In this document: piece by piece, positions 4,484 through 49,363 of the stretch | How positions within the stretch are numbered: position 1 is the stretch's first letter | Layout of the letters: every line of letters starts with the position of its first letter | Origin: Deltaproteobacteria bacterium | GTDB taxonomy: Bacteria > UBA10199 > SPLOWO2-01-44-7 | Reading direction: 5' to 3' | Length of the DNA stretch: 64,000 nt | Assembly: GCA_016203765.1 (NCBI GenBank) | Contig: JACQMB010000145.1 | Coordinates: forward strand, 72,964-136,963 | Position numbers and translations under genes: made by a program | The notes under the pieces: generated by a model | The model's database searches: none | Told to the model about the DNA's origin: nothing | Seen by the model: the letters and a program-made list of their open reading frames with translations, nothing else

Positions 4484-4580
4484 CGGCCCTGTCTAATCAC
4501 TTTTGGGGGGGTTGTCAATCGCCGATACGTTGACTTGCGGCGAGGATTGAGTATATAAAACCGTTCTTCTAGGGGTTTTC

Positions 4581-12923: not shown

Positions 12924-13576
12924 AAATGAAAACGGTCGTCTGTCTGCCTACTTATAACGAGGAAGAAAGCCTGCAGGAGATGATCGATCAAATCCGGGGA
13001 CTGGGGTTCGACCTGTTTGTCGTGGATGCCGGTTCCGGAGATCAAACCGTTGCCATTGCCCAACAAAACAGGGTCCCTGTTTATCAGCGGGACGGGAAGG
13101 GAAAGGGATGGGGGGTCCGCAAGGCGATCGCGGTGGCCAAACAACAGGGTTTCGACAATCTGGTCCTGATTGATTGCGACTGCACCTATCCGCCGCAATC
13201 GATTCCGGACTTGTTGACGCATCTTCCGGCCTATGACATGGCGGTAGGCCAAAGAAGGATAACCGATATTCCCAAAAGGAATCGTCTCCCCAACAAGTTT
13301 TTTACCGCCTTCGTGAATTTGCTGTTCGGCTCCCGTTTGCGCGACGTCAATTCGGGAATGAGGGTTTTTAAAGTGGAAGGAATGCCGCCGTTGGACGCCG
13401 AAGAATTTGAAGTGGAAGCGCAGATGACGATTCGGGCCTTGAAAAAAAAGTTGAAGATCAAGGAGGTCCCCATTGAGTACCGCGTTCGCAAAGGAGAGAC
13501 CAAGGTCAGGGTCCGGGACGGGTTCGTTATCTTGTGGGGGATTCTCAAGGAAAAATTCGGGGGATGCGACGGGTGA
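12920..13576 (+). CDS. Glycosyltransferase family 2, polyprenyl-phosphate sugar synthase-like (DPM1/GtrB-like)
   Basis: MKTVVCLPTYNEEESL, DAGSGDQT and a DCD motif. Size is 218 aa. Confidence 0.75.
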   Translation: MKMKTVVCLPTYNEEESLQEMIDQIRGLGFDLFVVDAGSGDQTVAIAQQNRVPVYQRDGKGKGWGVRKAIAVAKQQGFDNLVLIDCDCTYPPQSIPDLLTHLPAYDMAVGQRRITDIPKRNRLPNKFFTAFVNLLFGSRLRDVNSGMRVFKVEGMPPLDAEEFEVEAQMTIRALKKKLKIKEVPIEYRVRKGETKVRVRDGFVILWGILKEKFGGCDG

Positions 13577-13700
13577 TGCTGTCGGCGTGTTACATCCTGG
13601 GCGTGGGGGGGATTTTTTTGCTGGCCCATGCCCTTTGCGCCCGGCGGTTCGACATCGGAAAACTTTTCACCGTTTCGATGGCCTGGACCCTGGGGGCGGG

Positions 13701-13804
13701 TCAGATTTCCTTGGCGAGCTCGCCGATATCGGCCGCCTCCACCCGACTGAGAATTTCCCGAATGGTCTTTTGTTCGTTATAAACGGGGATCACCACGGAA
13801 AGCT

Positions 13805-13808
<4 letters not shown>
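13701..13808 (-). pseudogene. Remnant of a GT2 glycosyltransferase N-terminus (35 codons then stop)
   Basis: [35 protein letters not shown] followed by a stop. Its ATG overlaps the UXS stop (ATGA). Confidence 0.35.
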
Positions 13809-14729
<921 letters not shown>

Positions 14730-14755
<26 letters not shown>

Positions 14756-16046
14756 AGCTCGCGTAAAAAAACCCGGATGCTTTTAATTTTTGCGGGTTGT
14801 AGAGATTCCGTCCGTCAAAAATCACCGGCCGGCGCATCCGCCGCTTCATTTTTTCGAAATCCGGGCTTCGAAACTCATTCCATTCCGTGCAGATCACCAG
14901 GGCATCGGCCTCCTCCAGGCAGGCGTAGTTGTTGGAGACCCATTCGACCTTTTTTCCGATGGGCGTCTCCCGCGCTTTGGGACCGGCCACCGGATCAAAG
15001 GCGCGGATCATGGCCCCCCCCTCGCTCAATTTTTCCATCAAATAGAGGGCCGGGGCCTCGCGAACGTCATCGGTCTCCGGTTTGAAGCTGATTCCCCAAA
15101 AGGCGATCCTTTTGCCCCGCAAGTTTTTTGATGAGCCGAAATGGCCGATGATTTTTTCAAAAAAGATTTTCCTCTGCTTTTTGTTGACGGTATCAACGGC
15201 TTGAAGCAGGGAAAGCGGATAGTCTTTGTCCGCCCCCAGCTGCAAGAGGGCGGCCACGTCCTTGGGGAGGCACGATCCCCCGTACCCCAGCCCCGGAAAC
15301 AAAAAATGGGGGCCGACGCGATGATCCCATCCGAGGGCCTCGCGGACCTTGTCGATGTCCGCCCCCGCGCGTTCGCACAAATTGGCCATTTCATTCATGA
15401 AGGAAATGCGGCAGGCCAGCATGGCGTTGGCGACGTATTTGGTCAGTTCCGCCGAAGGGATGTCCATCACCAAAAAACGCTCCCGTTTGCGCATGAAAGG
15501 GGCGTAGAGCTCCCGAAGGACCTCGGCGTCTTCCGGCCGTTCCACTCCCACCACGATCCGATCGGGGTGGCTGAAATCCTGAACCGACGTTCCTTCTTTC
15601 AAAAATTCCGGGTTGGAGGCGACGGGCACTTCCCATTTTTTTTTAAGCCGTTCTTTTATTTTTAAAGTGGTTCCGACCGGCACCGTGCTTTTGGTGACAA
15701 CGAGGGTGGAAGGTTCCAATGCCGCGCTCAAGGCCTCCGCGGCGGCAAAGACATTGGTTAAATCGGTTGTGCCGTCATGGTTGGACGGCGTGTCGACGGT
15801 GAGAAAACAGATGTCCGCTTTCTCCATGGCCGGCGCGAGGGCGGTTGTAAAAAAAAGACGTTCCTCCGTGATCCCGCGTTTGACCAATGAATCCAGCCCC
15901 GGCTCATAAATGGGGATAATCCCATCCGACAGCTTCCTTATCTTTTCCTCGTTTTTATCCGAACACCAGACTTCGTTGCCGGCATCCGCCAAACAAGCGC
16001 CGGTCACCAAGCCGACATATCCCGTTCCGATAATCGAGATTTTCAT
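14730..16046 (-). CDS. ugd: UDP-glucose 6-dehydrogenase
   Basis: [20 protein letters not shown] and the catalytic GGSCLPKD motif. The ORF-track start at 16289 is read-through. The true ATG at 16044..16046 overlaps the MIPS stop. Confidence 0.85.
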
Positions 16047-17359
16047 TCGTAATATTCGGTTCCCAAATGCGTGATCGGCTCCTCGCCCATCATATGCCGG
16101 AGCGTGTTTTTGAGCTTCATCTGCTGGATGAAAAGATTGTGCTCGGGGTAGAGCCCCTCCGCCACCATGGGGGATTTGTAATAAAAAGAGAGCCACTCCT
16201 GAACCCCTTTCATGCCGGCGCGCTTGGCCAAATCCATCAACAAGACCAAATCCAAAACAATGGGGGCGGCCAAAATAGAATCGCGGCATAAAAAATTGAT
16301 TTTGAGTTGCATGGGATAACCCAGCCAGCCGAAGAGATCGATATTATCCCAACTCTCCTTGTTGTCGCCGCGGGGGGGATAGTAGTTGATCCGCACCTTG
16401 TGGTAGAGATTGCCGTAGAGTTCCGGTTGAAGTTCCGGCTGTAAAATCGTGTCCAAAACGGAGAGCTTGCTCTCTTCTTTCGTCTTGAAATTTTCCGGAT
16501 CGTCCAGGACTTCGCCGTCGCGATTCCCCAAAATATTGGATGAAAACCAGCCGTTGATCCCCAGCAGACGGGCCCTTAGGCCGGGGGCGATAATTGTTTT
16601 CATCAATGTTTGGCCGGTCTTAAAATCTTTGCCGGAGATCGGCGCGGCCGTTTCGATGGCCAGCGTTTGCAAGGCCGGTGTGTCGACCGTCAAATTGGGG
16701 GCGCCGTTGGCAAAAGGTATCCCCAGCTTCAAGGCCGCGTAGGCATAAATCATGCTGGGGGCGATATTCGGGTCGTTTTCTTTCAGCCCCTTTTCGAAAC
16801 TTTCCAGGGAGGCGTGGACGGCGGCCGGCTGGCGATAAGCCTCCGTGGAGGCGCACCAGATCATGTTCAACCGGTCGCATTTTTTTTCGTCTTTGAATCG
16901 AAGGATATCTTCGGTCAGTTGCTGGGCCAGATCCCATTTGGTTTTGGCCTGTTTGGCGTGCGTTCCATCCAGCCGGCGCACGTAATTTTTGTCGAAGACC
17001 GCCTTCCAGGGGCGCAAGACTTGCAGATCCTCTTTCAAATCCTCGATCTGGTTTTTTTCCAAAACGCCGGCATTAACCGCCGAGGTGTAGGCGTCATCGG
17101 CAAAAATATCCCACGCCCCAAAAACCAAATCCTCCATGTTCGCCAAGGGGACAAAGTCTTTGACCAGGGGGCTCTTATGCTCGGTTCGTTTGCCCAGCCG
17201 GATGGTCCCCATCTGGGTCAAGGAACCAAAAGGCCGGGCCAGGCCCCTCAGGCTTGCCAAAACACCGGCCACAAAGGTGGTGGAGACCGCCCCGAGGCCT
17301 ACTATCATAACCCCCAGTTTTCCTTGAGGTTTTTGGATTTTTGTTCGGATCTCAGTCAT
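16043..17359 (-). CDS. ino1: myo-Inositol-1-phosphate synthase
   Basis: Hallmark MIPS blocks GLGAVSTTFVAG, NGAPNLT, SKLSVLD and NYYPPRGDN. Confidence 0.85.
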   Translation of the reverse strand: MTEIRTKIQKPQGKLGVMIVGLGAVSTTFVAGVLASLRGLARPFGSLTQMGTIRLGKRTEHKSPLVKDFVPLANMEDLVFGAWDIFADDAYTSAVNAGVLEKNQIEDLKEDLQVLRPWKAVFDKNYVRRLDGTHAKQAKTKWDLAQQLTEDILRFKDEKKCDRLNMIWCASTEAYRQPAAVHASLESFEKGLKENDPNIAPSMIYAYAALKLGIPFANGAPNLTVDTPALQTLAIETAAPISGKDFKTGQTLMKTIIAPGLRARLLGINGWFSSNILGNRDGEVLDDPENFKTKEESKLSVLDTILQPELQPELYGNLYHKVRINYYPPRGDNKESWDNIDLFGWLGYPMQLKINFLCRDSILAAPIVLDLVLLMDLAKRAGMKGVQEWLSFYYKSPMVAEGLYPEHNLFIQQMKLKNTLRHMMGEEPITHLGTEYYE

Positions 17360-17672
17360 GGTTTGACGTTCCTTAGCATATTGGTGTATTTTGGCCACAA
17401 AATAATTTTTCGTTTTTCGCGTTTTTTTAAGCAACTTTTTTGGGGCTCCGCCGATAAGGTAAGTGAGATGATCAAGTGGTTCCAAAATTGGGTGAAGGGG
17501 AAAGCGGCCGGGGAGTCGACCCTTTTCGATGTGGCCCACGAGGTTTTGAGGCCCTCCTTTTTCAACCGCGAACTGAAAAAACAAAAGGTCAAAACGCAGA
17601 TCAAAAAGTTTTCCTCTTTTCCCATTATGGACGACGCCTCTTTTGAAATGGTCGAAGAAATCACCGAAACCG

Positions 17673-18422
17673 TCACCGAGGCCTGCGAGGCCGACCCGAA
17701 AGTGAACCGTCTTTTTGAAGATTCCTGATTGCCTGTTCAGCCTTTTCCAAGTCCTCCGGCGTGTCAATCTCCAGCCAGCGAATCCCTGAAGTGTCGGCGA
17801 TCGTGATCGGTTCGCCCCGGGCGGCCAGGTCCCCCAAAATCATCTCCACGGAGGCCTTGGGACCAAGTTTAGCCAACGCCGTTTCCCGTGCCGAAAGATA
17901 AGTGGAGAGTTTGGAGGCAGGGCAATAAGTCATTCCAATATAACCCCCATCATAATCTTTTAATGTTTTGTGAATGGCTTGAATTGTCCCCTGCCGACCC
18001 CTTTTGATTTTCATGTCATCGGCAACCAGGGGGCGATCAAAGTCACAGGCGGCCGTGATCCCTTTGCTTTGTTTTAGCAACACGTCGAGAAGGTGCTTGG
18101 GATAGATATGATCTGCATTGCATAATAAAAAATCATCATCCAAAATGGAGAGGGTGCATTGCATGCCTAAGAGACTCCCTTTATCAAAATGGGGTGTTTG
18201 AAAAATGCGAACGGAAGGGTAGTGTTTTTTCAGAAAATCAATGCAAAGGGGGGCTTGATAGCCAACGACCACCCCGATTTCAGCAATACGGCTGTTTTGA
18301 AGAAATTCCAAGGTATAGCTGATTAACGCTCGTCCGGCAACGTTCACTAAAACCTTCGGTTGGTTCTGGGTTAGGTGATTCAAACGATCACCCTGGCCGC
18401 CTGCTAAAATGAGTGCCTTCAT
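17673..18422 (-). CDS. Sugar/alcohol-phosphate nucleotidyltransferase, candidate CTP:inositol-1-phosphate cytidylyltransferase
   Basis: MKALILAGGQGDRL...PKVLV NTP-transferase signature. Size is 249 aa. It lies between MIPS and the CDP-alcohol phosphatidyltransferase. Confidence 0.6.
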   Translation of the reverse strand: MKALILAGGQGDRLNHLTQNQPKVLVNVAGRALISYTLEFLQNSRIAEIGVVVGYQAPLCIDFLKKHYPSVRIFQTPHFDKGSLLGMQCTLSILDDDFLLCNADHIYPKHLLDVLLKQSKGITAACDFDRPLVADDMKIKRGRQGTIQAIHKTLKDYDGGYIGMTYCPASKLSTYLSARETALAKLGPKASVEMILGDLAARGEPITIADTSGIRWLEIDTPEDLEKAEQAIRNLQKDGSLSGRPRRPR

Positions 18423-18440
18423 AATAGAAAATCCTCGCTG

Positions 18441-19151
18441 TTAGAATATTACTTTCAATTCGACAAGAGTGGAAATAACCATCGCCTTGGGGAAATGGTT
18501 TTGAAAATCTTTGGCCGAAAACAACCCCACTTTGCCGATAAAATCGATCCCGTTTTCTTCGGCGCGCTCCCCGTCCTTGAGGGAATCGCCGATAAAGACC
18601 GTCTCCTCGCGGCGGACTCCCCACCGGTTTAAAACATAAAGGAAATGATCCGCCCCCTTGGCGAAATTTTTCCGCCACCCCAGGGCCAGGTCGCAGGGGA
18701 TTTCCAGTTGATGCGCCAGTTTTTCCACCAGGTCGGCGGCGCTGTTGGACGAGATCGCCACCGCGTATTTTTTTTCTTTCAGATATTGCAGGGTCGGTTT
18801 GCAGTCGTCAAAAGGGATCTGCTCAAAATAGTTTTTCCTCTTTTTGGCTTCAAAATCGGCATTGGCCCGGGCGTTTTTCGTTTTTTCTTTGGGAAAAAGA
18901 ACGGCCATCTGGTCGCAAAAGGCCAGCCCCGAAGTTTGAACGTAGAGCCGGCGCCCCTCCGCGGGGGGCAGGTCGTAATGCTCCGCCATCACGCCGGCCG
19001 CCAGGTCGGCCAGCCAATTCATCGAATCGACGAGGGTTCCGTCGAAGTCGAAGCAGAGAATTTTTTTAGAGGACCAGGGACCATGGACCAGGGACCAAGG
19101 ACCCTCATTTTGGTTTATGGCCTGATTCTTTGTTTCCATTTTAACCATAGT
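18441..19151 (-). CDS. HAD-superfamily phosphatase
   Basis: Motif I ILCFDFDGTLVDS and a C-terminal GDSLKD (motif IV). The 357-aa ORF-track frame is read-through. Start chosen at MVKMETK. Confidence 0.6.
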   Translation of the reverse strand, partial: TMVKMETKNQAINQNEGPWSLVHGPWSSKKILCFDFDGTLVDSMNWLADLAAGVMAEHYDLPPAEGRRLYVQTSGLAFCDQMAVLFPKEKTKNARANADFEAKKRKNYFEQIPFDDCKPTLQYLKEKKYAVAISSNSAADLVEKLAHQLEIPCDLALGWRKNFAKGADHFLYVLNRWGVRREETVFIGDSLKDGERAEENGIDFIGKVGLFSAKDFQNHFPKAMVISTLVELKVIF

Positions 19152-19807
19152 AATATCCCATTGGACAGCCAGATGCCGACGGCGGCGATGTAAAGCCAGG
19201 CGGGCAAAATGCCGACCAGGGCAAAGAGAAAAAACATCAGTGAAAAAACGTCTTTCCGCATGAAGACGCGCCCGTAGCGGATGAAGGTCATCAAAAAAGA
19301 ACCGCTCTGGATCGGCAGTTTGGAGAGATATTCCTTGTCGAAAGTCACCAGGCTGGCTGATTTTGTGTTTCGCTTTAAAAAAAGAATAATTTGGAAAAAT
19401 AAAACGGCCAGGCCGGAAACGAGCAAGAGGGCCAAACCCCAGCCAAAGTTTGCCGCCAGCAGACCGGCAAAAAAACTGATCAACGCCCCGTTGTCGCTGA
19501 TGGAGTCGAGCCATTCACCCAACTTGGAGGTCATCCCGCGCAGTTTGGCCACCTCGCCGTCACAGCCATCAAAGATGGAAGCCATTTGAAAAAGAAAACC
19601 GCCCAAAAGGTAAAAAGGGTAGGTTCCTTGAGCCGTGAAAAAACCGGTGCTCCAGCCGAGGGTAATGTTGAAGGCGGAGATCCAATTGGGATGCACCCCC
19701 CATTTGGCCAACTGCCAGCTGATCGGCAGGGAAATGCGTTTGTTTAGGTGTCTCGCCACCGGTCCCGGTGTGGCCAGGCGGATGGCTTCCAGGCGTTTTT
19801 TGTCCAT
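19115..19807 (-). CDS. CDP-alcohol phosphatidyltransferase family protein, candidate DIPP synthase-like
   Basis: Signature DGCDGEVAKLRGMTSKLGEWLDSISDNG, matching D-G-x2-A-R-x8-G-x3-D-x3-D. Multiple TM segments. Confidence 0.8.
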   Translation of the reverse strand: MDKKRLEAIRLATPGPVARHLNKRISLPISWQLAKWGVHPNWISAFNITLGWSTGFFTAQGTYPFYLLGGFLFQMASIFDGCDGEVAKLRGMTSKLGEWLDSISDNGALISFFAGLLAANFGWGLALLLVSGLAVLFFQIILFLKRNTKSASLVTFDKEYLSKLPIQSGSFLMTFIRYGRVFMRKDVFSLMFFLFALVGILPAWLYIAAVGIWLSNGILLWLKWKQRIRP

Positions 19808-19886
19808 CCATCTCGAATATAGGCATCCGTGTCAGGACGCAACTATTTTTTGCAATGGGCGAAAATCTTTGGTAGGGAAGGGAAAA

Positions 19887-21350
19887 ATGGTCCAGAATCT
19901 ATTTTCCATCGGTATATTGGGGGGGCAGGCGGCGGCTGGTGTTGCGGGTGCGGCGGGTGCCGCGGAGGTCATCGATGCCGCGGCCCTGGACGTGACCGTT
20001 TTGACGGCGGCGGAGGCCGATGCCTTTGTGATGGGAAACAGCCCTTTCGTTCGGCTCGCCGGTTTGGTGAGGGGCGGGGCGGCTGTCTCTCCCCACGCTG
20101 GCTATCTGGCCATCTATCTGAGGGCGCCACAGCCTATCAAAGGTCAAATTTTGCGTGGGGAGGAAAAGGCGGTCTTGCTGAAAAAGGGAGAAATGGATCG
20201 TCATTTATCAAGACTCGGCCTTTGCGCCAGAGATTTGGCCCGGGTTTTTTCTTTTTCCGAGGCGGCTGTTTCCACGTGGCGTACCGGGCAGATTTCGTTG
20301 CCGGCCGGCGTCCTGCGTCTTATCAAAGAAGCGGAAAACAAAACAGAGGCTCTGGAAAACCTGAAGACATTTGTTGCCGGGGCAATGCGGGACTATGTGG
20401 AACGAACCCCCTATTGGGAACAGGTCTTTACCCTTCACCGGATTTTGGCTGAGAAAAAATTGTCTTTAATCTCTTTATTTGGAAGAAGTATCAGTAGGTG
20501 TAGTAGAAAATTAAGAGGTCAAAGAGACATTCAAGCCGTCATCGATATTGTCAAGCGGGATATTTCGCCGGTCGAAATGAAACGAAAAATCCTGGAGGCT
20601 TTAGGGATTAGACATTATAATAGAAGAGTCCATTTTTACCGGGAGGAGAGGGCCAATCGCGCGTTGAGGATGGCCCCGGCTAAATTCCAAACAACGCGGC
20701 GCGCCTTGGCCGGTTGGCTGGGGATCAGCCAAAATAGGTATGATACGCTTGCCATGGGCGAGAATCCCGTCTCCCCCAAACGCGCCGAACAAATTCGGAC
20801 CCTGGAGGAGTCGGCGACTTTAGTCGAATTAAGGGGACGGCTCGCCCTCCTTCCCCCCGTGCGGCCGCCGGCCTCCAATGGGGAGAGACGGTTGGGACCC
20901 GCCGAGGCGGAAGGAGAGCTTAAAACCTGCATGGCCCGCTATCGTCCCCTGGTCTTCCACATGGCCGGAAAAGGCCTGCGACGGTTCGGACTCAATTCAA
21001 GGGAAAACGTCGAGGAGACAGTCCAAGATGTTTTTATCGCTCTTCATACGACGTTGCGGAGGAGAGGAGCGAAGATTGAAATAACGAAGGGGTGGTTTTA
21101 CCGCGTCGTTCGCAACAAGGTCTTCGACAAGCTCATGGCGGTTCGGGGCATCAATAAGGATGATATTAATTTCTATTTTCGGATGCGGCGGTTCGCTTTG
21201 ATAACGGTGGAGGCCCTGATGGCCCGGGATCCGATGCTGACTCTTGAAGATGCCGAAGCCAACCTCCGGCGCTACCGGGCGATTCAGCTGCGGATGCACG
21301 GGGATGTTCCCATCGAGGATCTCCCCGAGGGCCTGCGGCGTAAAATTTAG
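19887..21350 (+). CDS. Putative transcriptional regulator (HTH domain plus sigma-70 region-2-like segment)
   Basis: HTH-like LSRLGLCARDLARVFSFSEAAVSTWRTGQ. A later block VQDVFIALHTTLRRRGAKIEITKGWFYRVVRNKVFD resembles ECF sigma region 2. The ORF-track N-terminus overlaps the opposite-strand gene, so the start was moved to MVQNLF. Confidence 0.4.
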   Translation: MVQNLFSIGILGGQAAAGVAGAAGAAEVIDAAALDVTVLTAAEADAFVMGNSPFVRLAGLVRGGAAVSPHAGYLAIYLRAPQPIKGQILRGEEKAVLLKKGEMDRHLSRLGLCARDLARVFSFSEAAVSTWRTGQISLPAGVLRLIKEAENKTEALENLKTFVAGAMRDYVERTPYWEQVFTLHRILAEKKLSLISLFGRSISRCSRKLRGQRDIQAVIDIVKRDISPVEMKRKILEALGIRHYNRRVHFYREERANRALRMAPAKFQTTRRALAGWLGISQNRYDTLAMGENPVSPKRAEQIRTLEESATLVELRGRLALLPPVRPPASNGERRLGPAEAEGELKTCMARYRPLVFHMAGKGLRRFGLNSRENVEETVQDVFIALHTTLRRRGAKIEITKGWFYRVVRNKVFDKLMAVRGINKDDINFYFRMRRFALITVEALMARDPMLTLEDAEANLRRYRAIQLRMHGDVPIEDLPEGLRRKI

Positions 21351-21406
21351 TTTTTCCAACCTGCGGTTGACTCTTAAAATCGCTCCGTGATAGGCTCCCG
21401 CCGGCT

Positions 21407-22381
21407 ATGCCCACAAACGGTTCCAACGGTCACCGCCCCTCTCCCCCCCGCTGGCGCGGGTTTGTCTATTATCTGCGCTGTAAGCTCCAGCACCGGCCCT
21501 ATCTGGTCAACGTCGAGTTTACCAAGCTGTGCAACGCCAAGTGTTTTTTCTGTCACTGCTGGCAGTTGGAATCGCCCGATGAATTGCAGGACTACGGGCC
21601 GGTGATTCAACGCTTTCGGCCCGTCCTCTGTTCCGTCTCCGGGGGCGAGCCGATGTTGCGCAAAAACTATCCCGACCTGTTGAAAAAAATGCGCCCCTGG
21701 TGTCATTACATGATGATTATCACGAACGGGGCGTTATTGAACGAAGACTCGGCCGAAAAACTGCGTTGGGCCGGCGTCGATCAGATCACCATCTCGCTCG
21801 ATTATTTGAGCAAAAAACACGACGAGGTTCGAAAAATCGACGGACTCTTTGAGCATATTTCAACCGTCGCGCCAAAACTCCGCTCCCAAGGCTACAAAAT
21901 TTGTTTCAACTCGATCATCATGGAATCGAACCTCGACGAGATTTTGCCTCTGGCCCGCAAGGCCCTGGGGTGGGACTGTTTTATTTCGTTCAGCTCCTTT
22001 TGCACGCTGAAGGCCAACGAGGAGAGCGAGTGGGTGCGTGAGGAACGGATGAAACAGTTGGCTGAAATCGTGGGCGAGTTAAAAGAAATGAAACGGGAAT
22101 ACCGCCACATCAAAAATTCGAACTATTATCTGGACCATATCGTTCCTTATTTCAAAGAGGGGGGGGTGGCCGACTGCAAGGCGGGACACAATTTCATCCA
22201 AATCACGCCGGACGGCTACGTCCAGCGCTGTTCCGAAATGCCCCGGATGGCCCACTACACAAAATACTGGCCGACCCAGGTCGGCGAAACCTTGTGCACC
22301 AAATGCTGGTACGGTTGCCGCGGCGAGACCGAATCAAACCTGATCGCCCCGGGCCGCCTTAAAGACCTCCTTCGAGCCTAA
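21407..22381 (+). CDS. Radical SAM enzyme with a Cys-rich C-terminal (SPASM/twitch-like) extension
   Basis: CNAKCFFC matches CxxxCxxC. The C-terminal cysteines are CKAGHN...CSEM...CTKCWYGC. Confidence 0.7.
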   Translation: MPTNGSNGHRPSPPRWRGFVYYLRCKLQHRPYLVNVEFTKLCNAKCFFCHCWQLESPDELQDYGPVIQRFRPVLCSVSGGEPMLRKNYPDLLKKMRPWCHYMMIITNGALLNEDSAEKLRWAGVDQITISLDYLSKKHDEVRKIDGLFEHISTVAPKLRSQGYKICFNSIIMESNLDEILPLARKALGWDCFISFSSFCTLKANEESEWVREERMKQLAEIVGELKEMKREYRHIKNSNYYLDHIVPYFKEGGVADCKAGHNFIQITPDGYVQRCSEMPRMAHYTKYWPTQVGETLCTKCWYGCRGETESNLIAPGRLKDLLRA

Positions 22382-22411
22382 TGTAGTTTGGGAACATCGA
22401 ACCCGCCACGT

Positions 22412-22432
22412 CGAAATAAGTATCGTGTCCCC
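22412..22432. repeat. REP-like half element (cgaaataagtatcgtgtcccc)
   Basis: Matches one arm of the hairpins at 32437, 33995 and 63373. Confidence 0.6.
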
Positions 22433-22442
22433 AAAAGATGCA

Positions 22443-23387: not shown

Positions 23388-25711
23388 TTATTCCGCCGCT
23401 TCTACCTCGATTTTTGCCGCATCGGAGCGTCCGTGATCGTCGACGGCGCGCAGGATGAAATTGCCGGGGTGCATTTTCCAATAGAAGGGCTCCTGACCGG
23501 GTGAGGTTCCCAAATATCCTTCATTGATAAACCAATGAATTCCCCTGACATCCGCGTCGGCAACCGCCATCAAGGAAAGGGTGGTTTCTTTTTTGGAATC
23601 GAGCCGGAGTTGATAGACAAGGTTTTTCTTTGGTGAGGTGATTTTAGGCGGGAGTCCCCGGTCCGTTTGGACGTTCAGCGGGCAAACTTTTTGGTAGGGA
23701 GGGGGGATGCGCCTCGGGATGCCTGCGACTTGAAAGATCTTCAGCAGATCGGAGGGCCAGAATTCGTAGACTTCTTTTTGGGTCGCGGTAGTTGCTTGGC
23801 AGGCCCGCAGTCCCGTATCGGCATCGATTAGAATTTCCCGGTGAATCTCACAAACTTGAATGGGGGATTTGCCTGGAATGAAAAATGTGGGGAGGGTATG
23901 CGGACAAAAAGGGCCGGGAATCTGGCCCGAAACCGAACAGACATCGACTTTTTTAATATCGAGCCTGTCGGAAATGAAGGGCTCCGTTAATTTTTTTTCT
24001 TCTCCCTTGATCGCATCAATGATTTGAAACATCAGCGGTGCCGCCGCTTCTCTTCCGAGGAAAGCGGGATTGCTCTTGCCGTCAAAATTTCCCACCCAAA
24101 CCCCCAGGACATAGGGTCCGAAAATTCCAATCGACCAGGCATCCCGGAAGGCGTAAGAAGTGCCCGTCTTCCAGGCGACCGGTAGCGGATTGTTGGTCCA
24201 TTCGGGGCGAAAACCCTCCCCCGGCCTCGGATTTTTTTTGAGCATATCCAGGATAAGGAAGCCCGCCTCCCGACTGAGAAAACGACCCGTCGTTTTTCCC
24301 TCTTCTTCTTCTAATTTTCGCAAAGGCTGAAGATTCCCCTGATTGGGAAGCATGGCATAAAGCCCGACCAGCTCCTCCATAGTAACTTCAACGCCGCCTA
24401 GGACCAGGGCCAATCCGTAGAAATCCTCTTCGCGAAGCCCGGATATTCCGGTTTTCTTCAAAAAGTCATAAAGACCTGGTTGTGCGAGTTGATTGGCGAC
24501 ATAAATGGCCGGAAGATTGCGGCTGTTGATGAGGGCCTCCGTCGCCTTTACCGGCCCGGTAAATTTGCCGTCGAAATTTTCGGGACTGTAGTCGCCGAAA
24601 TGAATTGGGGAATCCTTCAACATCGTCATCGGATGGATCACCCCCTGATCGATCCCCAGTGCGTAAATAAAGGGTTTTAGAGCTGATCCAGGGGAGCGCT
24701 TGGCCTGTGTTCCGTTCACCTGTCCTTCTATAGCATCGTTGAAAAAATCGGCGGAACCGAGCATCGCCTTGACCGACATATCCCGGTGGTCAACCAAAAG
24801 GGAGGCGGCATTTTGAATGCCGAACGGTTTTTTCTTTTTGATATAGCGGACCGCCTGTCTCTCCAAAATTTTTTGCAATTTTAGGTCGAGTGTCGTAGTC
24901 AAAGTTCCTTCGTCAGGAAATTCCTTTAAGACGGCATCGACAAAGTGGGGGGCATGAAAGGGGAGGTTTTTTCTTTGCGAGATGGCAAAGGGAAGATCCA
25001 ATTGAGATTTTTTCCCGGCATCATCGGGATATTTTTGAATCCATTGGGCAAAAAGTTCGTTGCGCGCCTCCAAAAGCCTGTTGTTTTTGTCCACCTGGTT
25101 TCCCTTTGGAGACCTTCGCAGGGGGCTTTGCGGGATGACGGCCAGGGTCAAGGCCTCCGGCAAGGTCAGTTGATCCACGTTTTTATGAAAATAGATGAGA
25201 CTTGCCGCTTTCGCTCCTTCAATATTGCCCCCATAGGAAACCAGACTGAAATAGGCGGCTAGAATCTCTTCTTTGGAATAGTGTCGTTCCAATTGAATCG
25301 ACCTTAGAATCTGTTTAAGTTTCCCAAAAATAGTGTGAGTGGGGATATCAAAACGAAGCCTGGCCACCTGCATGGTAATGGTGGAGGCGCGCCGGTGCGC
25401 CGGCTCCGGGCGAGATACGTTTGCCATGCGGCACGGAACAGAGAAAACGGATTGAATCCCGGATGCCCGTAAAAATAGCGGTCCTCTTTTAGTAGGGTGG
25501 CCTCTTTCAAATAAGGAGAGATTTCGTTGAGAGAGGTTTGAAGACGAAATTTGTCATCCGTGGAGAGGGTCAGTCTTAATAATCGGTGATTTTGGTCGTA
25601 GATTGCTTTTGAAAAAGAGTAGGGTTTCAAAAGGTCGGGTCTGGGAACAGCAAAGAGAGCGGCGCCTCCAAGAGCAGCCAATAAAAGCAAGACAAAAAAT
25701 CTTTGTTTCAT
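23388..25711 (-). pseudogene. pbpC: Penicillin-binding protein 1C (transglycosylase-transpeptidase) disrupted by a +1 frameshift
   Basis: N-terminal piece 25304..25711 has a signal peptide and the GT51 motif KEDRYFYGHPGFNP...RAAWQTY. The rest (23388..25427) continues in another frame with ASTITMQVARL, SxxK (SPGSALKPF) and a PbpC C-terminal domain. Removing one base in the GGCGCGCC run near 25388..25395 restores ...RRTGASTITMQ. Confidence 0.7.
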
Positions 25712-28700
25712 TCTCTTTCGGTAACTACCATTTGACCGCCAAGTGTTCTCGCTTTGACACTGCGGTTATACATCGCCTCGCCGAAAGTGGGGGGCACTTG
25801 ATAGGTGCCTGCGTTGGTGGCGCGGACTCGGTAGACATATTCCTGGGTGGAACTGCCCACAAAACCGTAGAGAATCACTCGGTCTCCCCGGATCTCGACA
25901 TGTTCGGGGATCCAGCCGGTCTCCGAGTTGCGCGAGGCCTCGATGTCGACTTCAAAACCTCCCGGGAGCAAATCGACGATGGCGATATTCTGGCAACCGC
26001 TTTCTTGGATAGAGCGGAATTTAAGATGAACATCGACGTTGGCTCCGACTTCTGTCTTGTCGATTTCACTCCCCTCTTCATTGCGGTACTCCCGGTAGAC
26101 CTCTAGTTTGTCCTTGATCTGATTTTCAGGCAGGTTTCGGTCAAAACCGGCCTCGGTCATCTGGTAGAAAATGGATTGTTCAGCCTTTCCCTCAAAACGA
26201 ATTTTTTCAGCCTGCTCGGAAAAGGAAGCGGCGGGAAATGTTCCTTCCGGAAGCAAAAGGAGCTTGGATTGGCCGCCGGGCAGAATTTCGCTAACGGAGA
26301 CCTTGGCCAATTCGGCCTCCGGGACGGCATCCATATAGGCATCCAGCGCCATAATCGTGTAAGCGGAAGTGATCGTATTATAATGACCCTCCATAAGGGG
26401 TTGCAGTATTTGCATGATTTGGCCGCCGGTAAATCTTTTTAAATTTTCCGGAAAATGGCGGGCCACAATATAAAGATATTGGCTGTTATGATCGAAAGGC
26501 TCGCAGGAAGCGTGATGATCGGTTGTGCTGACGGCAGTGGCGGAAACTTTTGCGATGATGTCTTGAGCCTGGCTCTCTTTTTGCAAGAGTTGATAAGTCG
26601 CCGCGACGTAGAGACCGCTCAAATCTTTTTTCCAGGTTTTTGGATATTCCTTTTCCAGGGATTCGATTAAAACCGTTAACTCGTTTGTGGTGACAATCCC
26701 GTTACGGGTTAAGATATAAATGGCGTAGGCTTGATTTCTGGCTTTTGCAAGGGATGCCGGCACTTGATTCGACAGGTTTTTAAGAAACCCCAATCCTTTT
26801 TCCAGCAAACGGATCGGAACGGGGTAGCCCGATTCCTTGGCCTCGGTCAAAAAGTGGAGAGCATAGACACTTTGGAAATTGTCGACATGGGAATTGGCCG
26901 CCCAAAAGCCGAAGGCCCCCTCTTCATTTTGTCTTGCCTGCAAGATACGGATCGTCCGCCCCAAATTTGCTTCCGCCTTTTCGGGTTCAAAGCCGAAGTC
27001 GGGGCGATTGCGAAGCAACAGGGCCGGAACGGCTTGACTGACTATTTGCTCAGTACAACCGTAGGGAAATTCCTTTAGAAAATGGATCAATCCGTGCGCC
27101 AAACCTAAGGGGACCATTGAGGCGGATGCTTCCAGCTTTCGATGATGGGGATACATTTCTCGGGTGACGGGGACATCTTTTGTCCCTTTTTTAACAAATC
27201 CGGATGTCAGCGTTGTCACATAAGGCGTGGCCGGTCGGACGCTCAGATCGATTGTATATTGACTTTTTTTATTATCCAGCAACGCGGAGAAGGTAAAGCG
27301 GCCAGAGCCCAAAATGTCATTGGCCTTCACCTTAAAACGGGCTGTTTTCTCTTTCCCCTCCGGCACGTTGATTTTTTTGTTTGCCTCCTCCAAAATTTGG
27401 ACATGCTCGGAGGTTGCAAGGGCTAAGGTCACTAGGGCCGCCTCTCCTGAATTTTTAACATTATTCGTTACGGCAACACTGACCTCGAACGTATCACCAG
27501 GGGCCACGAAGGTCGGAACATTGGGGCTCATAATAAGATCGCCCCGGATAAAAGATTTTTTCTCGTCGACACCGATAGTCGAGGGGGAGACTGCAACGGC
27601 CATTACACGGAGGGTGCCGTTGAAGTGATCGGGAATATGGTAAACCAATTCCCTTTCTTTGCTGTCGAGATCAATAATCCCAGACCAAAAGATCGCCGGT
27701 TTCAATTTTTTTCTTTTAAAGGGATTCAGGTTAGCGCCCAAAGCCTCCGCTTCTCCGCCACCGGCTGCCGACAAGAATTGTTCCGAAACAAACTCCGGCA
27801 GGATAAGATCCAAAATCTGCGCGGTTGTCATCTCCAAGGCCCGCTTGCGAAAAAAGTGGTCGAGCGGCTTGGGGGTTTGATACTTGGCCACCTGCAATAT
27901 CCCTTCATCAACGGCAAAAATAATCGCCTTGGCGGGATGGGCCCCTTTATATTTAATGGGGAAGGGTTCTCCCGGCTTGGCCGTGTCGGGTGCGCTGATC
28001 TGAATCGGATGGATTCTCCTTGCCCGGCTGACCGTAAAAGGAGCCACCCCATAGCTCAAGGGACTCATGTAGATCTCTTTGGAATCGAGCGAGCGGACGA
28101 AGCTGACATTAATATAGGCATTTCCTTCCAGGTCGTTCGGCACGCGGATCGTTTGAACGGAGCCGGTGGTTTTGGTTTGAAACCATTTGAAGGCAAAAAC
28201 ACGGTCCCGCTCAATCGTTAGGAGTCCGCTGCCGGTATAGGGGGCCTTGATACTGACTTCTATCTCTTCTGCCGGATTAAAGTCGGTCTTGTTGAGTTTG
28301 ATGGTCAGTTCGGCATGTTTTTCCAGACTGCGGCCCAGATCAGCCTCGCCCACCACGCTAAACTCGATCCGGTTGAGTTCGGTATCGTTTTCATCACGAA
28401 CAATCAAGGCAAAATCGCCGGCATCTTTTGTGGGGAGTTCGTAGAGAAGACCATCCGCGGGAATGGCAAGCGGTTTTTTGGCTCGCCTCGTTTCTTTTCT
28501 GACCGATTCGTATTTGTAAACGCCGCTTTCCTGTTTGGTTAAGACCGAAACGTATTGAAGCTCCACGAAATCAAAAGTGAGTCCGGAGCTTGCGATTTTC
28601 GACAAGGCAGGATCGACGGCAACGAGATGCACGCTTCTTTCGCTCTCTTTGCGGATATAACGAAGATCCCCGTCCGGCTTGAAGCCGACCAGGAATTCCA

Positions 28701-31452
28701 GCGGGGAGACCAGAGTAGAGCTTTGAGAAACGACCGATCTGCCGCCGGCGGCTTCATAGCCTTCGGCGGTAAAGGTGAGATGATAGGCTGCCTTGCCAAA
28801 ACGTTTCAAATCGAGATCAAATTCACACTCTCCCTCTTCATTGGTCGTTTGATCTTTAAGGCGCTCGCTGATCTTGTTTTCTTCTTTAAAGGGATCGGTA
28901 AAAATATAATCGCGGTATTCTTGAAACTCAAAGGCCATTTGGGGCCGAAGCAAGATGTATCCGGCAACGCGCCGGTTGGCCGCGGGTGTGCCGAAGAGAT
29001 TTTTTAGTGTGACCCGGCCTTTCAAATTTTCGGGCAAAACCCAGCCTTTCTCTCTTTCTAAAGAAAGGGCGGAGGTGATTTTCATTCGGTCCGGAAGAAA
29101 TTCTTCCACTCTGACGGACGTTTCTCCAAGCCAGCTGCGCTTATCGTCGTCTTTGACCACATAGGCATCGACCCGGTAAATACCCGTGGGGGAGGTCTCC
29201 TCGGTTTGATAGGCAATCTCTTCAAAGGCCTGGCCTGATAGGAAAATCTTTTCCCTTTGTACCTCCAGACCCCGGGCGTCGCTGACGACGATTTCCAATG
29301 GAATATCGGCAAGCTTTTTGCTCCAGTCGGAGGTTTTGACGATGATGCCGATATGAAAAGTTTCACCCGGCCGGTAGATGCCCCGGTCCGAAAAAAGAAA
29401 GGCATCAAGGCGTTCTTTCCCGTAGGATGAGGTGCCGATGCCGCCAATATCGAAGCGGGAGAAGTTCAAGTCCCGGTCGCGCCGGTCGTAGGTTAAAAAG
29501 GAAAGGTCCTTTCCCTTGCGGACGACATAAACCGTCGGCTCTTTGTCACGCTTGAAATCCTTGAGCGAGGGAATGAGGGCGTGTCCTTGATCGTCCGTCT
29601 TTTTGGTTGCAATCGGCAGGCCGTTTTTGCCGAGGACTTCGACGGTTGCTCCCGTGACCGGGCGCCCCTGATCGATGGATTGAACAAAAACATCGTGGGT
29701 GCCGTGAGGGGAATCCTTGACCAGAAGACCGAGGTCGGTCACCAGGATAAAACGGTGGTCTTGGGAACCGATGAATTTCTTTTCTTCGGGGCGGTAACCG
29801 GAAACGGTAACGAAAAAGAGGCCGTGGTCAGAGGCGCCTTTGAGATAATCGGTGAAATCAAAGGCGCTGTATTGGGGTTTTTTCGACGCGGAGTCGGCCA
29901 GTTCGCGTATTTCGGTATAGCGCTCCGTAATATTGTCGCGGTCGAATTTGTAATAGTGAAAGTCGGGGTGATCAAAATTCCCGGCGGTTTGACTTACCAG
30001 ATGATTGACCTGATTTGGCAAGACCCTGCCGATTTCGAAATGGAGAGCGGGCACGCCGCGGGAGACGACCGTGATCGTCCTCTTGCCGGCCAGACTCAAC
30101 ACCGCCCCCTCATGCAGGATTTTGGCCTCCTTGGGAAGCGGCGGAACTTTCAAAATTTTGTCATGTTCCTTGGCCAGGATGTAGCCGCCATGGGATGAAA
30201 TACCCTTTTTAAGTTTGAGATAAAGATAACGGTCTTCTTCGGCCTCAAATTTAAAACTGTGAAGAGTGGAATATTCTTTGTCGGTGGGGATTGCCTCCAG
30301 TTTTAAAGGTGCGGCCGCATCCAAAACTTCGGGGCCTACTTCCGATGGGCTTTGCCAGCGATAATTTTTCTCAACCTCTCCTCCTTCCAGCAGGGGAGGA
30401 CGATCCAAGGGCAAAAGATAGGCTTCCAAATTTTTTTGAAAATCCTGAGACAAAACCCCGTCCGTCATCTCAAAAACCAAAACCTGTTCAGCCTCCAACA
30501 GTTTGTTGTAGGCGTGGGTCAGCGAGGCCTTCTCAAGCCTAAAAAAATTGTAAACACCTGGAATTCCCACTTGGAAAGCAATTTCTTCTTTTGTTGGCGG
30601 GCCGCCTTTGGCTGAGCGAATCCCTTTTTGAACAGTCACGATCATCTCTGCATCTTGCAACGGGATTGTGACGGTATTGGTATGAATGTAAGCCTCGCTT
30701 TTGAATTCATTGTAGGTGACGCGATAACCGAAATCCTTTTTCTTCTTCTCCTCTTTCATTTGAACCTGGATACGTTTCTCCAGACTGGCCGGATCGACCG
30801 GATGGCTAAAGCGGAGGGTTGCGAGGATCTTTTTGTTTTTGGGATCTCTCGGGTCTTGATAAAATTCCTTCTTGGCGAGTTCGGTCTGAAATGAAGCCGA
30901 TTGGAAGCGGTGCTCATATTTTTTAAGAAGGATGTGTTCGGGAAAAAGGGTTTTCGCGAAGGCGACATCAAATTCCTGGCCCACCGGCCAATCTTCTTTG
31001 GGAGTAAAAACGAGTTGCCGGTCGGATTCCCATTTCCAGGTCCCTTCTAATCCCGGTGAGAGTTGAATGCCTTGTGATATCTCTTGTCCGACCTGTTTTA
31101 GTTGGGCCACCGAGTTGTTAAAAATAATCCTGGCCGGATAGGGCTTGGCATCTTTTTCCATCGGCGTTGCGGAAGGGTTGTTTACATAAAAGGTGTATCG
31201 GACCGGCTTGGGAAGGATTTTATACCAAATAATCCCCCCGCTACCGCAGGCAATCAGCAACACCGAGAGCATGTGAAATGTCCAAAACCTGCGCGGGTGA
31301 TGGTGTTTTAGGGAGGTATAACGTGCAACCATCCGGGAACAGGGTTGCTTGATGCCGGTTTTAATGGAGACGAGCCATTTTGGAGGCATCCAGGAAACCT
31401 CACCAAAGACGGCCTTGAAAATTTTGAGGCCCTGTTTTTGATCAGATGCCAT
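25708..31452 (-). CDS. Bacterial alpha-2-macroglobulin family lipoprotein (YfhM/ECAM-like) with a thioester
   Basis: 1914 aa. Lipobox LLIACGSG. Thioester motif GCTEQ in FPYGCTEQIV. Stop overlaps the pbpC start, the classic A2M-PbpC pairing. Confidence 0.85.
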   Translation of the reverse strand: MASDQKQGLKIFKAVFGEVSWMPPKWLVSIKTGIKQPCSRMVARYTSLKHHHPRRFWTFHMLSVLLIACGSGGIIWYKILPKPVRYTFYVNNPSATPMEKDAKPYPARIIFNNSVAQLKQVGQEISQGIQLSPGLEGTWKWESDRQLVFTPKEDWPVGQEFDVAFAKTLFPEHILLKKYEHRFQSASFQTELAKKEFYQDPRDPKNKKILATLRFSHPVDPASLEKRIQVQMKEEKKKKDFGYRVTYNEFKSEAYIHTNTVTIPLQDAEMIVTVQKGIRSAKGGPPTKEEIAFQVGIPGVYNFFRLEKASLTHAYNKLLEAEQVLVFEMTDGVLSQDFQKNLEAYLLPLDRPPLLEGGEVEKNYRWQSPSEVGPEVLDAAAPLKLEAIPTDKEYSTLHSFKFEAEEDRYLYLKLKKGISSHGGYILAKEHDKILKVPPLPKEAKILHEGAVLSLAGKRTITVVSRGVPALHFEIGRVLPNQVNHLVSQTAGNFDHPDFHYYKFDRDNITERYTEIRELADSASKKPQYSAFDFTDYLKGASDHGLFFVTVSGYRPEEKKFIGSQDHRFILVTDLGLLVKDSPHGTHDVFVQSIDQGRPVTGATVEVLGKNGLPIATKKTDDQGHALIPSLKDFKRDKEPTVYVVRKGKDLSFLTYDRRDRDLNFSRFDIGGIGTSSYGKERLDAFLFSDRGIYRPGETFHIGIIVKTSDWSKKLADIPLEIVVSDARGLEVQREKIFLSGQAFEEIAYQTEETSPTGIYRVDAYVVKDDDKRSWLGETSVRVEEFLPDRMKITSALSLEREKGWVLPENLKGRVTLKNLFGTPAANRRVAGYILLRPQMAFEFQEYRDYIFTDPFKEENKISERLKDQTTNEEGECEFDLDLKRFGKAAYHLTFTAEGYEAAGGRSVVSQSSTLVSPLEFLVGFKPDGDLRYIRKESERSVHLVAVDPALSKIASSGLTFDFVELQYVSVLTKQESGVYKYESVRKETRRAKKPLAIPADGLLYELPTKDAGDFALIVRDENDTELNRIEFSVVGEADLGRSLEKHAELTIKLNKTDFNPAEEIEVSIKAPYTGSGLLTIERDRVFAFKWFQTKTTGSVQTIRVPNDLEGNAYINVSFVRSLDSKEIYMSPLSYGVAPFTVSRARRIHPIQISAPDTAKPGEPFPIKYKGAHPAKAIIFAVDEGILQVAKYQTPKPLDHFFRKRALEMTTAQILDLILPEFVSEQFLSAAGGGEAEALGANLNPFKRKKLKPAIFWSGIIDLDSKERELVYHIPDHFNGTLRVMAVAVSPSTIGVDEKKSFIRGDLIMSPNVPTFVAPGDTFEVSVAVTNNVKNSGEAALVTLALATSEHVQILEEANKKINVPEGKEKTARFKVKANDILGSGRFTFSALLDNKKSQYTIDLSVRPATPYVTTLTSGFVKKGTKDVPVTREMYPHHRKLEASASMVPLGLAHGLIHFLKEFPYGCTEQIVSQAVPALLLRNRPDFGFEPEKAEANLGRTIRILQARQNEEGAFGFWAANSHVDNFQSVYALHFLTEAKESGYPVPIRLLEKGLGFLKNLSNQVPASLAKARNQAYAIYILTRNGIVTTNELTVLIESLEKEYPKTWKKDLSGLYVAATYQLLQKESQAQDIIAKVSATAVSTTDHHASCEPFDHNSQYLYIVARHFPENLKRFTGGQIMQILQPLMEGHYNTITSAYTIMALDAYMDAVPEAELAKVSVSEILPGGQSKLLLLPEGTFPAASFSEQAEKIRFEGKAEQSIFYQMTEAGFDRNLPENQIKDKLEVYREYRNEEGSEIDKTEVGANVDVHLKFRSIQESGCQNIAIVDLLPGGFEVDIEASRNSETGWIPEHVEIRGDRVILYGFVGSSTQEYVYRVRATNAGTYQVPPTFGEAMYNRSVKARTLGGQMVVTERE

Positions 31453-44104: not shown

Positions 44105-44114
44105 AAGGAAAACC

Positions 44115-44942: not shown

Positions 44943-44944
44943 AC

Positions 44945-49361: not shown

Positions 49362-49363
49362 CG

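Follow-up and report, generated by a model that had tools for sequence, protein, structure and literature searches.

To our knowledge, inositol lipids are considered rare in bacteria, and Rhodothermus marinus is the sole organism for which a route to such lipids via CDP-inositol has been demonstrated. The R. marinus operon, which consists of genes for MIPS (myo-inositol-1-phosphate synthase), the cytidylyltransferase IPCT and the phosphotransferase BEPIS, leads from CDP-inositol to ether glycerophosphoinositol (Jorge, Borges & Santos 2015, Environ Microbiol 17:2492, cited by PMC4587543). In Bacteroides vulgatus and Prevotella, a “putative alternative inositol lipid cluster” encodes an NTP transferase, a CDP-alcohol (CDP-OH) transferase and a phosphatase of the HAD superfamily beside MIPS; Bacteroides and Prevotella strains that possess only this set still make inositol sphingolipid, without the route through phosphatidylinositol-phosphate (PIP) synthase, and the alternative cluster itself is functionally unconfirmed (PMC9246714). 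In PIP synthases, inositol phosphate is bound by R153 and R191 of RsPIPS (R155 and R195 of MtPIPS), together with S132 and K135, and mutation of these acceptor residues cripples activity; the related enzymes AF2299 and AfDIPPS use the soluble donors CDP-glycerol and CDP-inositol, and process no lipids (PMC4634129). Here, we describe a cluster of comparable content, comprising genes for a CDP-alcohol phosphotransferase (hereafter, the transferase), a HAD phosphatase, a nucleotidyltransferase and MIPS, in a 64,000-nucleotide stretch of DNA (hereafter, the window) from the metagenome-assembled genome (MAG) of an uncultured “Deltaproteobacteria” bacterium of a groundwater-type lineage (GenBank assembly GCA_016203765.1, contig JACQMB010000145.1, positions 72,964 to 136,963).

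The gene content of this cluster and of its relatives points strongly to CDP-inositol as the pathway intermediate and, with moderate confidence, to an inositol lipid as the product. MIPS would convert glucose-6-phosphate to L-myo-inositol-1-phosphate, a step well supported by homology, and the IPCT-like nucleotidyltransferase would then combine inositol-1-phosphate with CTP to give CDP-inositol. The transferase is predicted to move the inositol phosphate of CDP-inositol onto a non-phosphorylated, hydrophobic membrane alcohol, with diacylglycerol, dialkylglycerol and ceramide as candidate acceptors, so that a phosphatidylinositol-like or inositol-phosphoceramide-like lipid would be released along with CMP. 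The most economical, if speculative, role of the HAD phosphatase would be in making the lipid alcohol acceptor, for example, by converting phosphatidic acid to diacylglycerol, whereas a radical-SAM enzyme and a small protein encoded alongside probably modify the lipid or its head group, or else serve in regulation. Taken as a whole, this would be a Kennedy-type pathway for an inositol head group.

The arrangement of the four genes can hardly be due to chance, since their order is found again in no fewer than 11 independent MAG or metagenome contigs. A scan of species-representative genomes matched at least 600 stretches, of which the best 80 loci were studied; throughout, neighbour counts are over 89 loci and acceptor-site columns over 328 family sequences. 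In L001-L011 and L084, the genes run from a divergent radical-SAM gene through the CDP-OH transferase, HAD phosphatase, NTP transferase, LPG_synthase_TM and a small antisense gene to MIPS, sometimes followed by the UDP-glucose 6-dehydrogenase gene ugd. L001 is the closest relative, with 84% identity on the transferase; among the species-representative genomes listed, “Deltaproteobacteria bacterium RIFCSPHIGHO2_01_FULL_43_49” comes nearest, with 62%. No more than about 5 kb separates MIPS from the transferase in the window, L001-L005, L084 and L085/L086, and the clustering of MIPS, an IPCT-like enzyme and a CDP-alcohol phosphotransferase is kept in L001-L005 and L084.

MIPS itself is well supported, by sequence comparison, as an enzyme of the long, Bacteroides/eukaryote-like type that would supply L-myo-inositol-1-phosphate. 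Its best match in the PDB is 7nwr (E 1.6e-167), which we take to be the structure of the MIP synthase of B. thetaiotaomicron. A crystal structure of the latter enzyme is reported in Heaver 2022 (PMC9246714).

The best NCBIfam match of the nucleotidyltransferase is the Thermococcales IPCT/DIPPS family NF041135, at 79 bits over the full length, which is under the cut-off. When a profile of the close, unfused family was compared with the PDB, AfIPCT (83 bits) and IPCT/DIPPS (81) ranked highest, with PntC at 80, LicC at 76 (N-terminal part only), TmIMPCT at 46 and the next best match at 53; once the fused relatives were added to the profile, the scores became 135 for AfIPCT, 134 for IPCT/DIPPS, 106 for TmIMPCT, 95 for PntC, 80 for LicC and 66 for the next best. 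On the strength of these scores, the enzyme belongs with the cytidylyltransferases whose substrates are small phospho-alcohols rather than sugar-1-phosphates: it does not cluster with glucose-1-phosphate transferases, and AfIPCT scores highest, with PntC and LicC close behind. The ranking leads us to reject a glucose-1-phosphate or other sugar-phosphate nucleotidyltransferase as its identity. The comparison alone favours IPCT, not decisively; the gene context supports this identity and would seem to settle it in practice. In L085/L086, a 626-aa protein joins MIPS to a homologous nucleotidyltransferase domain (full-length identity 28%, E 2e-17), and in Nitrospira, Latescibacterota, Saprospiraceae and other loci, homologous nucleotidyltransferase domains are fused to the transferase, including triple fusions of NTP transferase, CDP-OH transferase and LPG_synthase_TM in Saprospiraceae and a delta-proteobacterial MAG. 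The proposal of a CDP-inositol pathway, already made in a sequence-only reading of this DNA, is thus supported by MIPS, the IPCT-like scores, the fusions in relatives and the AF2299/DIPPS-like transferase. As for the MIPS fusion itself (9114-10994, minus strand), it joins a short-type MIPS to the IPCT-like domain and is convergent with a gene for a 362-aa transferase of the same family; the 2.26-Mb metagenome contig that carries it also encodes APS reductase and ATP sulfurylase.

The transferase has six transmembrane (TM) helices, lacks an N-terminal cytidylyltransferase-like domain, and carries the signature D80-G-C-D83-G84-E-V-A87-K88 ... G97 ... D101 ... D105. The pattern DG..A..G...D...D is as first described, with “AK” instead of “AR”; the lysine is common to 72 of the 328 family sequences, that is, to the whole clade. 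A single-sequence search of the PDB recovered AF2299 (1.1e-16) and AfIPCT/DIPPS (4.5e-10), and the family profile matched AF2299 at 3.4e-44 and AfDIPPS at 9.5e-35, against 4e-15 for PIP synthase. An AF2 model (pLDDT 94) gave the same ranking of families in Foldseek, with AF2299 as the top match (TM-score 0.65). By sequence and predicted structure, then, the transferase is AF2299/DIPPS-like rather than PgsA/PIPS-like, and it groups with AF2299 and AfDIPPS instead of clustering with PgsA/PssA or PIP synthases. A PIP synthase or PgsA was considered and rejected, given the gap between the profile matches and the absence of the acceptor arginines; the matches to the NCBIfam models PIPSynth and pgsA are far under their cut-offs.

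The residues expected to hold the acceptor tell a different story from the overall fold. We compared them using the TM-domain sequences of AF2299, AfDIPPS, RsPIPS and MkPIPS taken from PDB alignments, in which, as a check of residue spacing confirms, R153 is the second arginine of an RxxR motif. AF2299 (TRDFR in the RxxR region, E-A-L-R-R in TM6, AYTGDK at the end of TM4), AfDIPPS (KRDER and SYTSEK; TM6 not recovered) and the Nitrosopumilaceae IPCT/DIPPS of L062 (GRDVR, E-A-L-R-R, SYTSDK) all keep the R153 equivalent and the “YT..K” motif at the end of TM4, and the “RR” of TM6 is retained in AF2299 and the Nitrosopumilaceae enzyme. In the window transferase, we looked for these three DIPP-synthase acceptor motifs, the second arginine of RxxR, the TM6 RR and the TM4-end motif, and found none: the corresponding segments read RKDVF, SNGILL and QIILFL, with F188 at the R153 position, G/I in TM6 and I/L at the end of TM4. 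The same holds for the family at large, in which the R153 column contains F in 271 sequences, Y in 12, S in 10, L in 10, M in 6 and R in 11, the last being the four references plus seven DIPPS-like proteins; hydrophobic (F-type) residues occupy this position in about 95% of the family. Because the R153-position residue and its partners are replaced by hydrophobic ones, the acceptor site does not appear to be built for phosphorylated inositol.

The genomic neighbourhoods of the relatives suggest where such a transferase might act. LPG_synthase_TM, a flippase-like membrane protein resembling BT_1521, is encoded within 3 kb of the transferase or fused to it in 40 of the 89 loci (fused in 11), with fusions of LPG_synthase_TM and the CDP-OH transferase in Acidobacteriota. 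In 21 of the 89 loci (L015, L018, L019, L021, L023, L025-L035, L040, L052, L058, L079 and L084), a full or partial arrangement of genes for an outer-membrane efflux protein (OEP), IPCT-CDPOH, MlaC and an MMPL transporter is found, which looks like a dedicated locus for lipid synthesis and export. Such loci occur in Latescibacterota, Gemmatimonadota and unclassified MAGs, and LPG_synthase_TM lies upstream in several of those from Latescibacterota. A tblastn search of plasmids yielded distant homologues only, which we use as contrasts rather than as orthologues. One of these, on plasmid pAvCG412 of Agrobacterium vitis (L090, 1453-6657), is an Arg-type AF2299-like transferase accompanied by phosphoenolpyruvate (PEP) mutase, an aminotransferase, a LicC/PntC-like cytidylyltransferase and an oxidoreductase; judging by its genes, this set is a phosphonate version of the same head-group module. 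From the presence of this pair beside PEP mutase, it appears that a cytidylyltransferase and its partner transferase form a head-group module of general use, in which the neighbouring genes determine the head group. A homologue search seeded with the Saprospiraceae domain returned no named Rhodothermus or Bacteroides match.

All four open reading frames (ORFs) lie on the minus strand, where they had been placed at the outset, and are intact (Table 1). The HAD and transferase genes overlap by 34 nt, and the translational coupling of MIPS to ugd by ATGA is borne out by the overlap of the MIPS stop and the ugd start at 16043-16046. The genes and order of the cluster stand as first read, but the cluster is interrupted by a gene on the opposite strand, which is placed between MIPS and the convergent NTP-transferase gene and implies at least two transcription units for the four genes. 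This 86-aa gene overlaps the 3' end of the NTP-transferase gene, has homologues at the same position in L001-L005 and L008, and its L002 homologue has no NCBIfam match. A scan of 13400-22500 for promoters and terminators gave counts no better than those for shuffled sequences.

Table 1. Genes of the inositol cluster and its immediate flanks (positions in the window)
Feature	Coordinates	Strand	Length	Domain matches and motifs
NAD-dependent epimerase/dehydratase-family short-chain dehydrogenase/reductase (SDR) enzyme	14755..13805	-	316 aa	Pfam GDP_Man_Dehyd/Epimerase
UDP-glucose 6-dehydrogenase (ugd)	16046..14730	-	438 aa	three UDPG_MGDP_dh Pfam domains
MIPS	17359..16043	-	438 aa	PF07994 3.9e-99, PF01658 3.9e-32
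Conserved small gene	17468..17728	+	86 aa	
NTP transferase (IPCT-like)	18422..17673	-	249 aa	PF12804 3e-13, PF00483 3e-11
HAD phosphatase	19148..18441	-	235 aa	motif FDFDGTL; PF13419/PF00702 ~1e-10
CDP-alcohol phosphotransferase	19807..19115	-	230 aa	Pfam PF01066 1.5e-11
Protein with weak sigma-70 region-2 match	19887..21350	+		Pfam Sigma70_r2 2.6e-5
Radical-SAM enzyme	21407..22381	+		Pfam PF04055; CxxxCxxC

The HAD protein is, judging by its DxDxT motif (reported earlier as DFDGT and read here as FDFDGTL), a soluble HAD-superfamily phosphatase. Its NCBIfam matches are phosphoglycolate-phosphatase-like and all sub-threshold, its best PDB match is 3d6j, a generic structural-genomics HAD (33.7 bits), and it adjoins the transferase in 14 of the 89 loci. 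The protein has an N-terminal extension with the near-repeat GPWSLVHGPWSS at 19030-19110, directly before the catalytic DFDGT.

Several observations weigh against a lipid product. The nearest solved relatives of the transferase, AF2299 and AfDIPPS, handle no lipids, and the six-TM architecture that they share with it has been tied to soluble acceptors by Clarke et al. 2015, with the lipid-acceptor enzymes CPT/CEPT carrying 3-4 extra helices (PMC4634129); CEPT1 and CPT1 are weak structural matches to our model in Foldseek. Loss of the arginines indicates that the acceptor is not phosphorylated, with which free inositol also fits. The HAD phosphatase has no necessary role in the lipid model, the lead of IPCT over PntC and LicC on the close-family profile is a few bits, and flippase-like, MlaC and MMPL genes are missing from the window, the lipid-transport context coming from relatives. 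Finally, the cluster abuts polysaccharide genes, and an F-type homologue on plasmid STP1 of Sphingomonas taxi (L089, 6551-7759) lies inside an ABC-type capsule locus.

Some of these points are shared by an explanation that we consider improbable, namely, that the cluster makes a soluble inositol phosphodiester, either di-myo-inositol phosphate (DIP) or a glycerophosphoinositol-type solute. The transferase could join CDP-inositol to inositol-1-phosphate, with HAD stripping the remaining phosphate, or HAD could first make free inositol, to which the transferase would couple CDP-inositol. All four genes would then have a role, the overlap of the transferase and HAD genes would fit, the relatives with the same six-TM fold give soluble products, and PMC8397731 proposes DIP genes for Thaumarchaeota that are not thermophiles. 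If the acceptor were free inositol, with which the arginine loss is compatible, then HAD could act as an inositol-1-phosphate phosphatase and DIP could be made directly. However, the residues that replace those binding inositol phosphate are Phe, Leu and Ile, which are hydrophobic and not polar; the DIPP phosphatase is of the inositol-monophosphatase family (labelled “IMP” in the 2021 paper, PMC8397731), and the sole phosphatase in the window cluster is a HAD; and, according to that paper, no DIP genes had been seen, before its thaumarchaeal clades, outside organisms that grow at more than 55 degrees C. Moreover, operons of the clade include the flippase-like membrane protein, more distant relatives lie beside MlaC, MMPL and OEP, and inositol lipids are made by Bacteroidetes that share this gene set (PMC9246714). 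The analogy with the four-step synthesis of a DIP solute, drawn in the sequence-only reading, finds no support in the acceptor site, in the phosphatase or in the surroundings of the relatives. Of its other suggestion, that inositol phosphate is attached to a glycan or a lipid, the lipid half has become the best reading, one with a precedent, and the glycan half is retained as a rival.

That rival holds that the inositol phosphate of CDP-inositol is passed to a glycan, or else to a glycoconjugate that is polyprenol-linked or lipid-anchored, decorating a capsule-like or O-antigen-like polymer, or that an inositol lipid is the anchor of the polymer; the polysaccharide neighbours and the MIPS-ugd unit would then belong to the same product. 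The possibility of such a role arises from the S. taxi capsule locus, the polysaccharide neighbours (Bac_transf, family 2 glycosyltransferases (GT2), a CDP-hexose pathway, ugd and a probable UDP-glucuronate decarboxylase) and the MIPS-ugd coupling, an adjacency that is also seen in L002 and L004. Polysaccharide genes lie near L003 and L084 as well, and the B. thetaiotaomicron capsule is altered on loss of inositol lipids, according to PMC9246714. The polysaccharide neighbours, however, are not conserved in the clade, L001 having oxidoreductases and L084 an aldolase and a LysR regulator in their place, and the version with an anchor overlaps the lipid reading without contradicting it. We know of no CDP-alcohol phosphotransferase of this class that uses a glycan acceptor, and we regard attachment to a glycan, too, as improbable. 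Highly improbable is the third alternative, a different head group (phosphocholine, aminoethylphosphonate or glycerol phosphate) with MIPS as a mere neighbour: MBI4125657.1, which is 100% identical to the nucleotidyltransferase and is encoded on a 145-kb contig of a “Deltaproteobacteria bacterium” MAG, is annotated as “phosphocholine cytidylyltransferase family protein”, LicC and PntC score near IPCT on the close-family profile, and an analogous pair stands beside PEP mutase in A. vitis, but MIPS keeps close to the transferase in the window and related loci, it is even fused to a cytidylyltransferase, a Pfam scan of approximately 45 window ORFs found neither choline kinase nor PEP mutase, and the A. 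vitis transferase is of the Arg-containing type, unlike that of the window.

If an inositol lipid is the product, the conserved partners of the transferase bear on what kind of lipid it might be. The radical-SAM enzyme, transcribed divergently from the cluster, has a Cys-rich C-terminal region and is encoded no more than 3 kb from the transferase in 17 of the 89 loci, including a copy in a Nitrospira MAG that matches at 2e-86. Its matches in Pfam, NCBIfam and the PDB are generic and weak (MoaA, the PTO1314 family, HpnH, SkfB, BlsE and viperin), and a single-sequence AlphaFold model reached a pLDDT of 38.6, too low to use. Because this enzyme is tightly conserved (93% identity between the window and L001) and has become re-associated with the transferase in the Nitrospira MAG and other lineages, one can envisage, albeit with low probability, that the radical-SAM enzyme, HAD and the small protein make the pathway yield a modified inositol lipid of an undescribed class rather than plain phosphatidylinositol. 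The change could affect the linkage or else the ring, which would become an oxidised, epimerised or methylated cyclitol. By analogy with lipoarabinomannan or the glycosyl inositol phosphoceramides (GIPCs) of plants, the lipid might serve as anchor or decoration of the glycan that the adjacent genes would make, which would contain glucuronate/xylose. Between the radical-SAM and transferase genes sits the sigma-70-region-2-like protein, which also has an HTH-like region and has a clear counterpart only in the window and L001 (3e-127); the start of its gene at 19887 was inferred from the length of the L001 gene.

The history of the cluster in this genome seems to involve both loss and replacement. 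LPG_synthase_TM is present between the nucleotidyltransferase and the small gene in L002-L009 and L084, is absent from the whole 64-kb window, and is also missing from L001, where the spot is taken by a GFO_IDH_MocA (IolG-like) oxidoreductase and a GMC oxidoreductase. The clean absence of the gene, together with a 15-aa C-terminal tail of the nucleotidyltransferase that is unique to this genome and runs into the antisense small gene at its 3' end (17673-17728), is consistent with a deletion of about 1 kb; by comparison with its relatives, this genome has evidently lost LPG_synthase_TM from the cluster. The remaining genes appear to be functional because purifying selection persists after this loss, with dN/dS between the window and L001 of 0.07 for the transferase, 0.25 for HAD, 0.08 for MIPS and 0.055 for the radical-SAM gene. 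The nucleotidyltransferase departs from this pattern, being 56% identical to its L001 counterpart (4531-5238), with synonymous sites saturated, amid flanking genes that are 76-93% identical, which suggests replacement or recombination of this one gene while the rest of the cluster was conserved.

Beyond MIPS, the minus-strand unit continues with ugd (NCBIfam TuaD-like, 5.5e-139) and ends with the SDR enzyme. All NCBIfam matches of the latter are under the cut-offs, the best being to dTDP-glucose 4,6-dehydratase and LegB-like families, with UDP-4-keto-pentose/UDP-xylose synthase at 1e-27; because its gene follows ugd, the enzyme is probably a UDP-glucuronate decarboxylase. Facing the inositol cluster is a polysaccharide locus (4581-13576, plus strand) that encodes a Bac_transf protein, a GT2, a methyltransferase, two proteins without Pfam matches, a glucose-1-phosphate cytidylyltransferase-like and a CDP-glucose dehydratase-like enzyme, a C-methyltransferase that has a zinc-binding domain, and a second GT2. 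Elsewhere in the window, a PBP1C-like gene (23388-25711, minus strand) looks split into a 135-aa ORF (25304..25711) corresponding to the N-terminal part and a 679-aa ORF (23388..25427) that starts at position 66 of the Transgly profile, through a frameshift, pseudogene formation or an assembly error; it lies directly downstream of a gene for a 1914-aa bacterial alpha-2-macroglobulin (A2M; 25708..31452), a classic A2M-PbpC pair. Probable polymorphic toxins, each about 2117 aa long and bearing RHS repeats and DUF6531, are encoded at 34835-41191 (minus strand) and 56659-63009 (plus strand), and the GC content is lower around 32-34 kb and after 62 kb. A Tad/Flp pilus cluster (42847-52306, plus strand) includes TadE/G-like and RcpC/CpaB proteins, a secretin, two T2SSF proteins and a T2SSE ATPase with a ParA/CbiA-like N-terminus.

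Relatives of the transferase are encoded in at least 596 of the matched stretches from species-representative genomes, across many phyla, so that the initial description of this chemistry as uncommon in bacteria was overstated. This breadth suggests that the head-group-activation module is spread over many phyla, including, besides the uncultured “Deltaproteobacteria” groundwater lineage, Latescibacterota, Acidobacteriota, Myxococcota, Gemmatimonadota, Nitrospira and Saprospiraceae. The distinction between Arg and Phe at the RxxR position, along with the two further motifs, amounts to a simple sequence test that would tell enzymes accepting inositol phosphate (the type of DIPPS and AF2299) apart from the large bacterial group, and would help keep labels such as DIP synthase or phosphocholine cytidylyltransferase off the bacterial genes. 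For the “alternative” pathway, which is unconfirmed, the conserved HAD and radical-SAM partners offer concrete points of attack, and we consider the radical-SAM partner and the Arg/Phe acceptor-site signature to be the most original leads of this analysis.

Set against the described systems, the locus shows a mosaic of likenesses. With the PIP synthase/PgsA1 route of Actinobacteria and B. thetaiotaomicron (BT_1523, BT_1525), it has in common the transferase superfamily, a phosphatase in the cluster and, if our proposal is correct, an inositol phospholipid as the end product; in that route, however, the lipid is activated, as CDP-diacylglycerol, and inositol phosphate is the acceptor, whereas the window encodes a head-group cytidylyltransferase and its transferase lacks the PIPS arginines. 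With the archaeal and thermophile DIP pathway and AF2299, the likeness lies in the enzymes: MIPS and an IPCT-like enzyme are present, AF2299/AfDIPPS are nearest to the transferase in sequence and structure, and the juxtamembrane “NRxIS” helix and the DGxDGE signature are found in all of them. They differ in that the window genes are unfused, with no N-terminal cytidylyltransferase-like domain on the transferase, that the Arg, Ser and Lys of the acceptor site have given way to hydrophobic residues, that HAD stands in for an IMPase-type phosphatase, that the relatives occur in lipid-transport contexts, and that the setting is probably not thermophilic.

The B. vulgatus-type cluster, to judge by domain composition against the published description, has the same domain set beside MIPS, and the window's relatives carry a BT_1521-like LPG_synthase_TM gene; in both cases, the transferase and HAD are tightly linked, being fused in P. 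veroralis and overlapping in the window. The B. vulgatus-type cluster belongs to another phylum, and the window differs from it in having a radical-SAM partner and lacking LPG_synthase_TM. With the R. marinus operon, the likeness is one of gene content: both are bacterial, both cluster MIPS, an IPCT-type cytidylyltransferase and a CDP-alcohol phosphotransferase, and in both, as proposed by analogy for the window, CDP-inositol would be the donor to a lipid alcohol, which in R. marinus is dialkylether glycerol. The HAD, radical-SAM and small-protein partners set the window apart, none being mentioned for the operon in PMC4587543. The kind of pathway is, therefore, already known, and to it the present locus adds an uncultured, groundwater-type bacterium.

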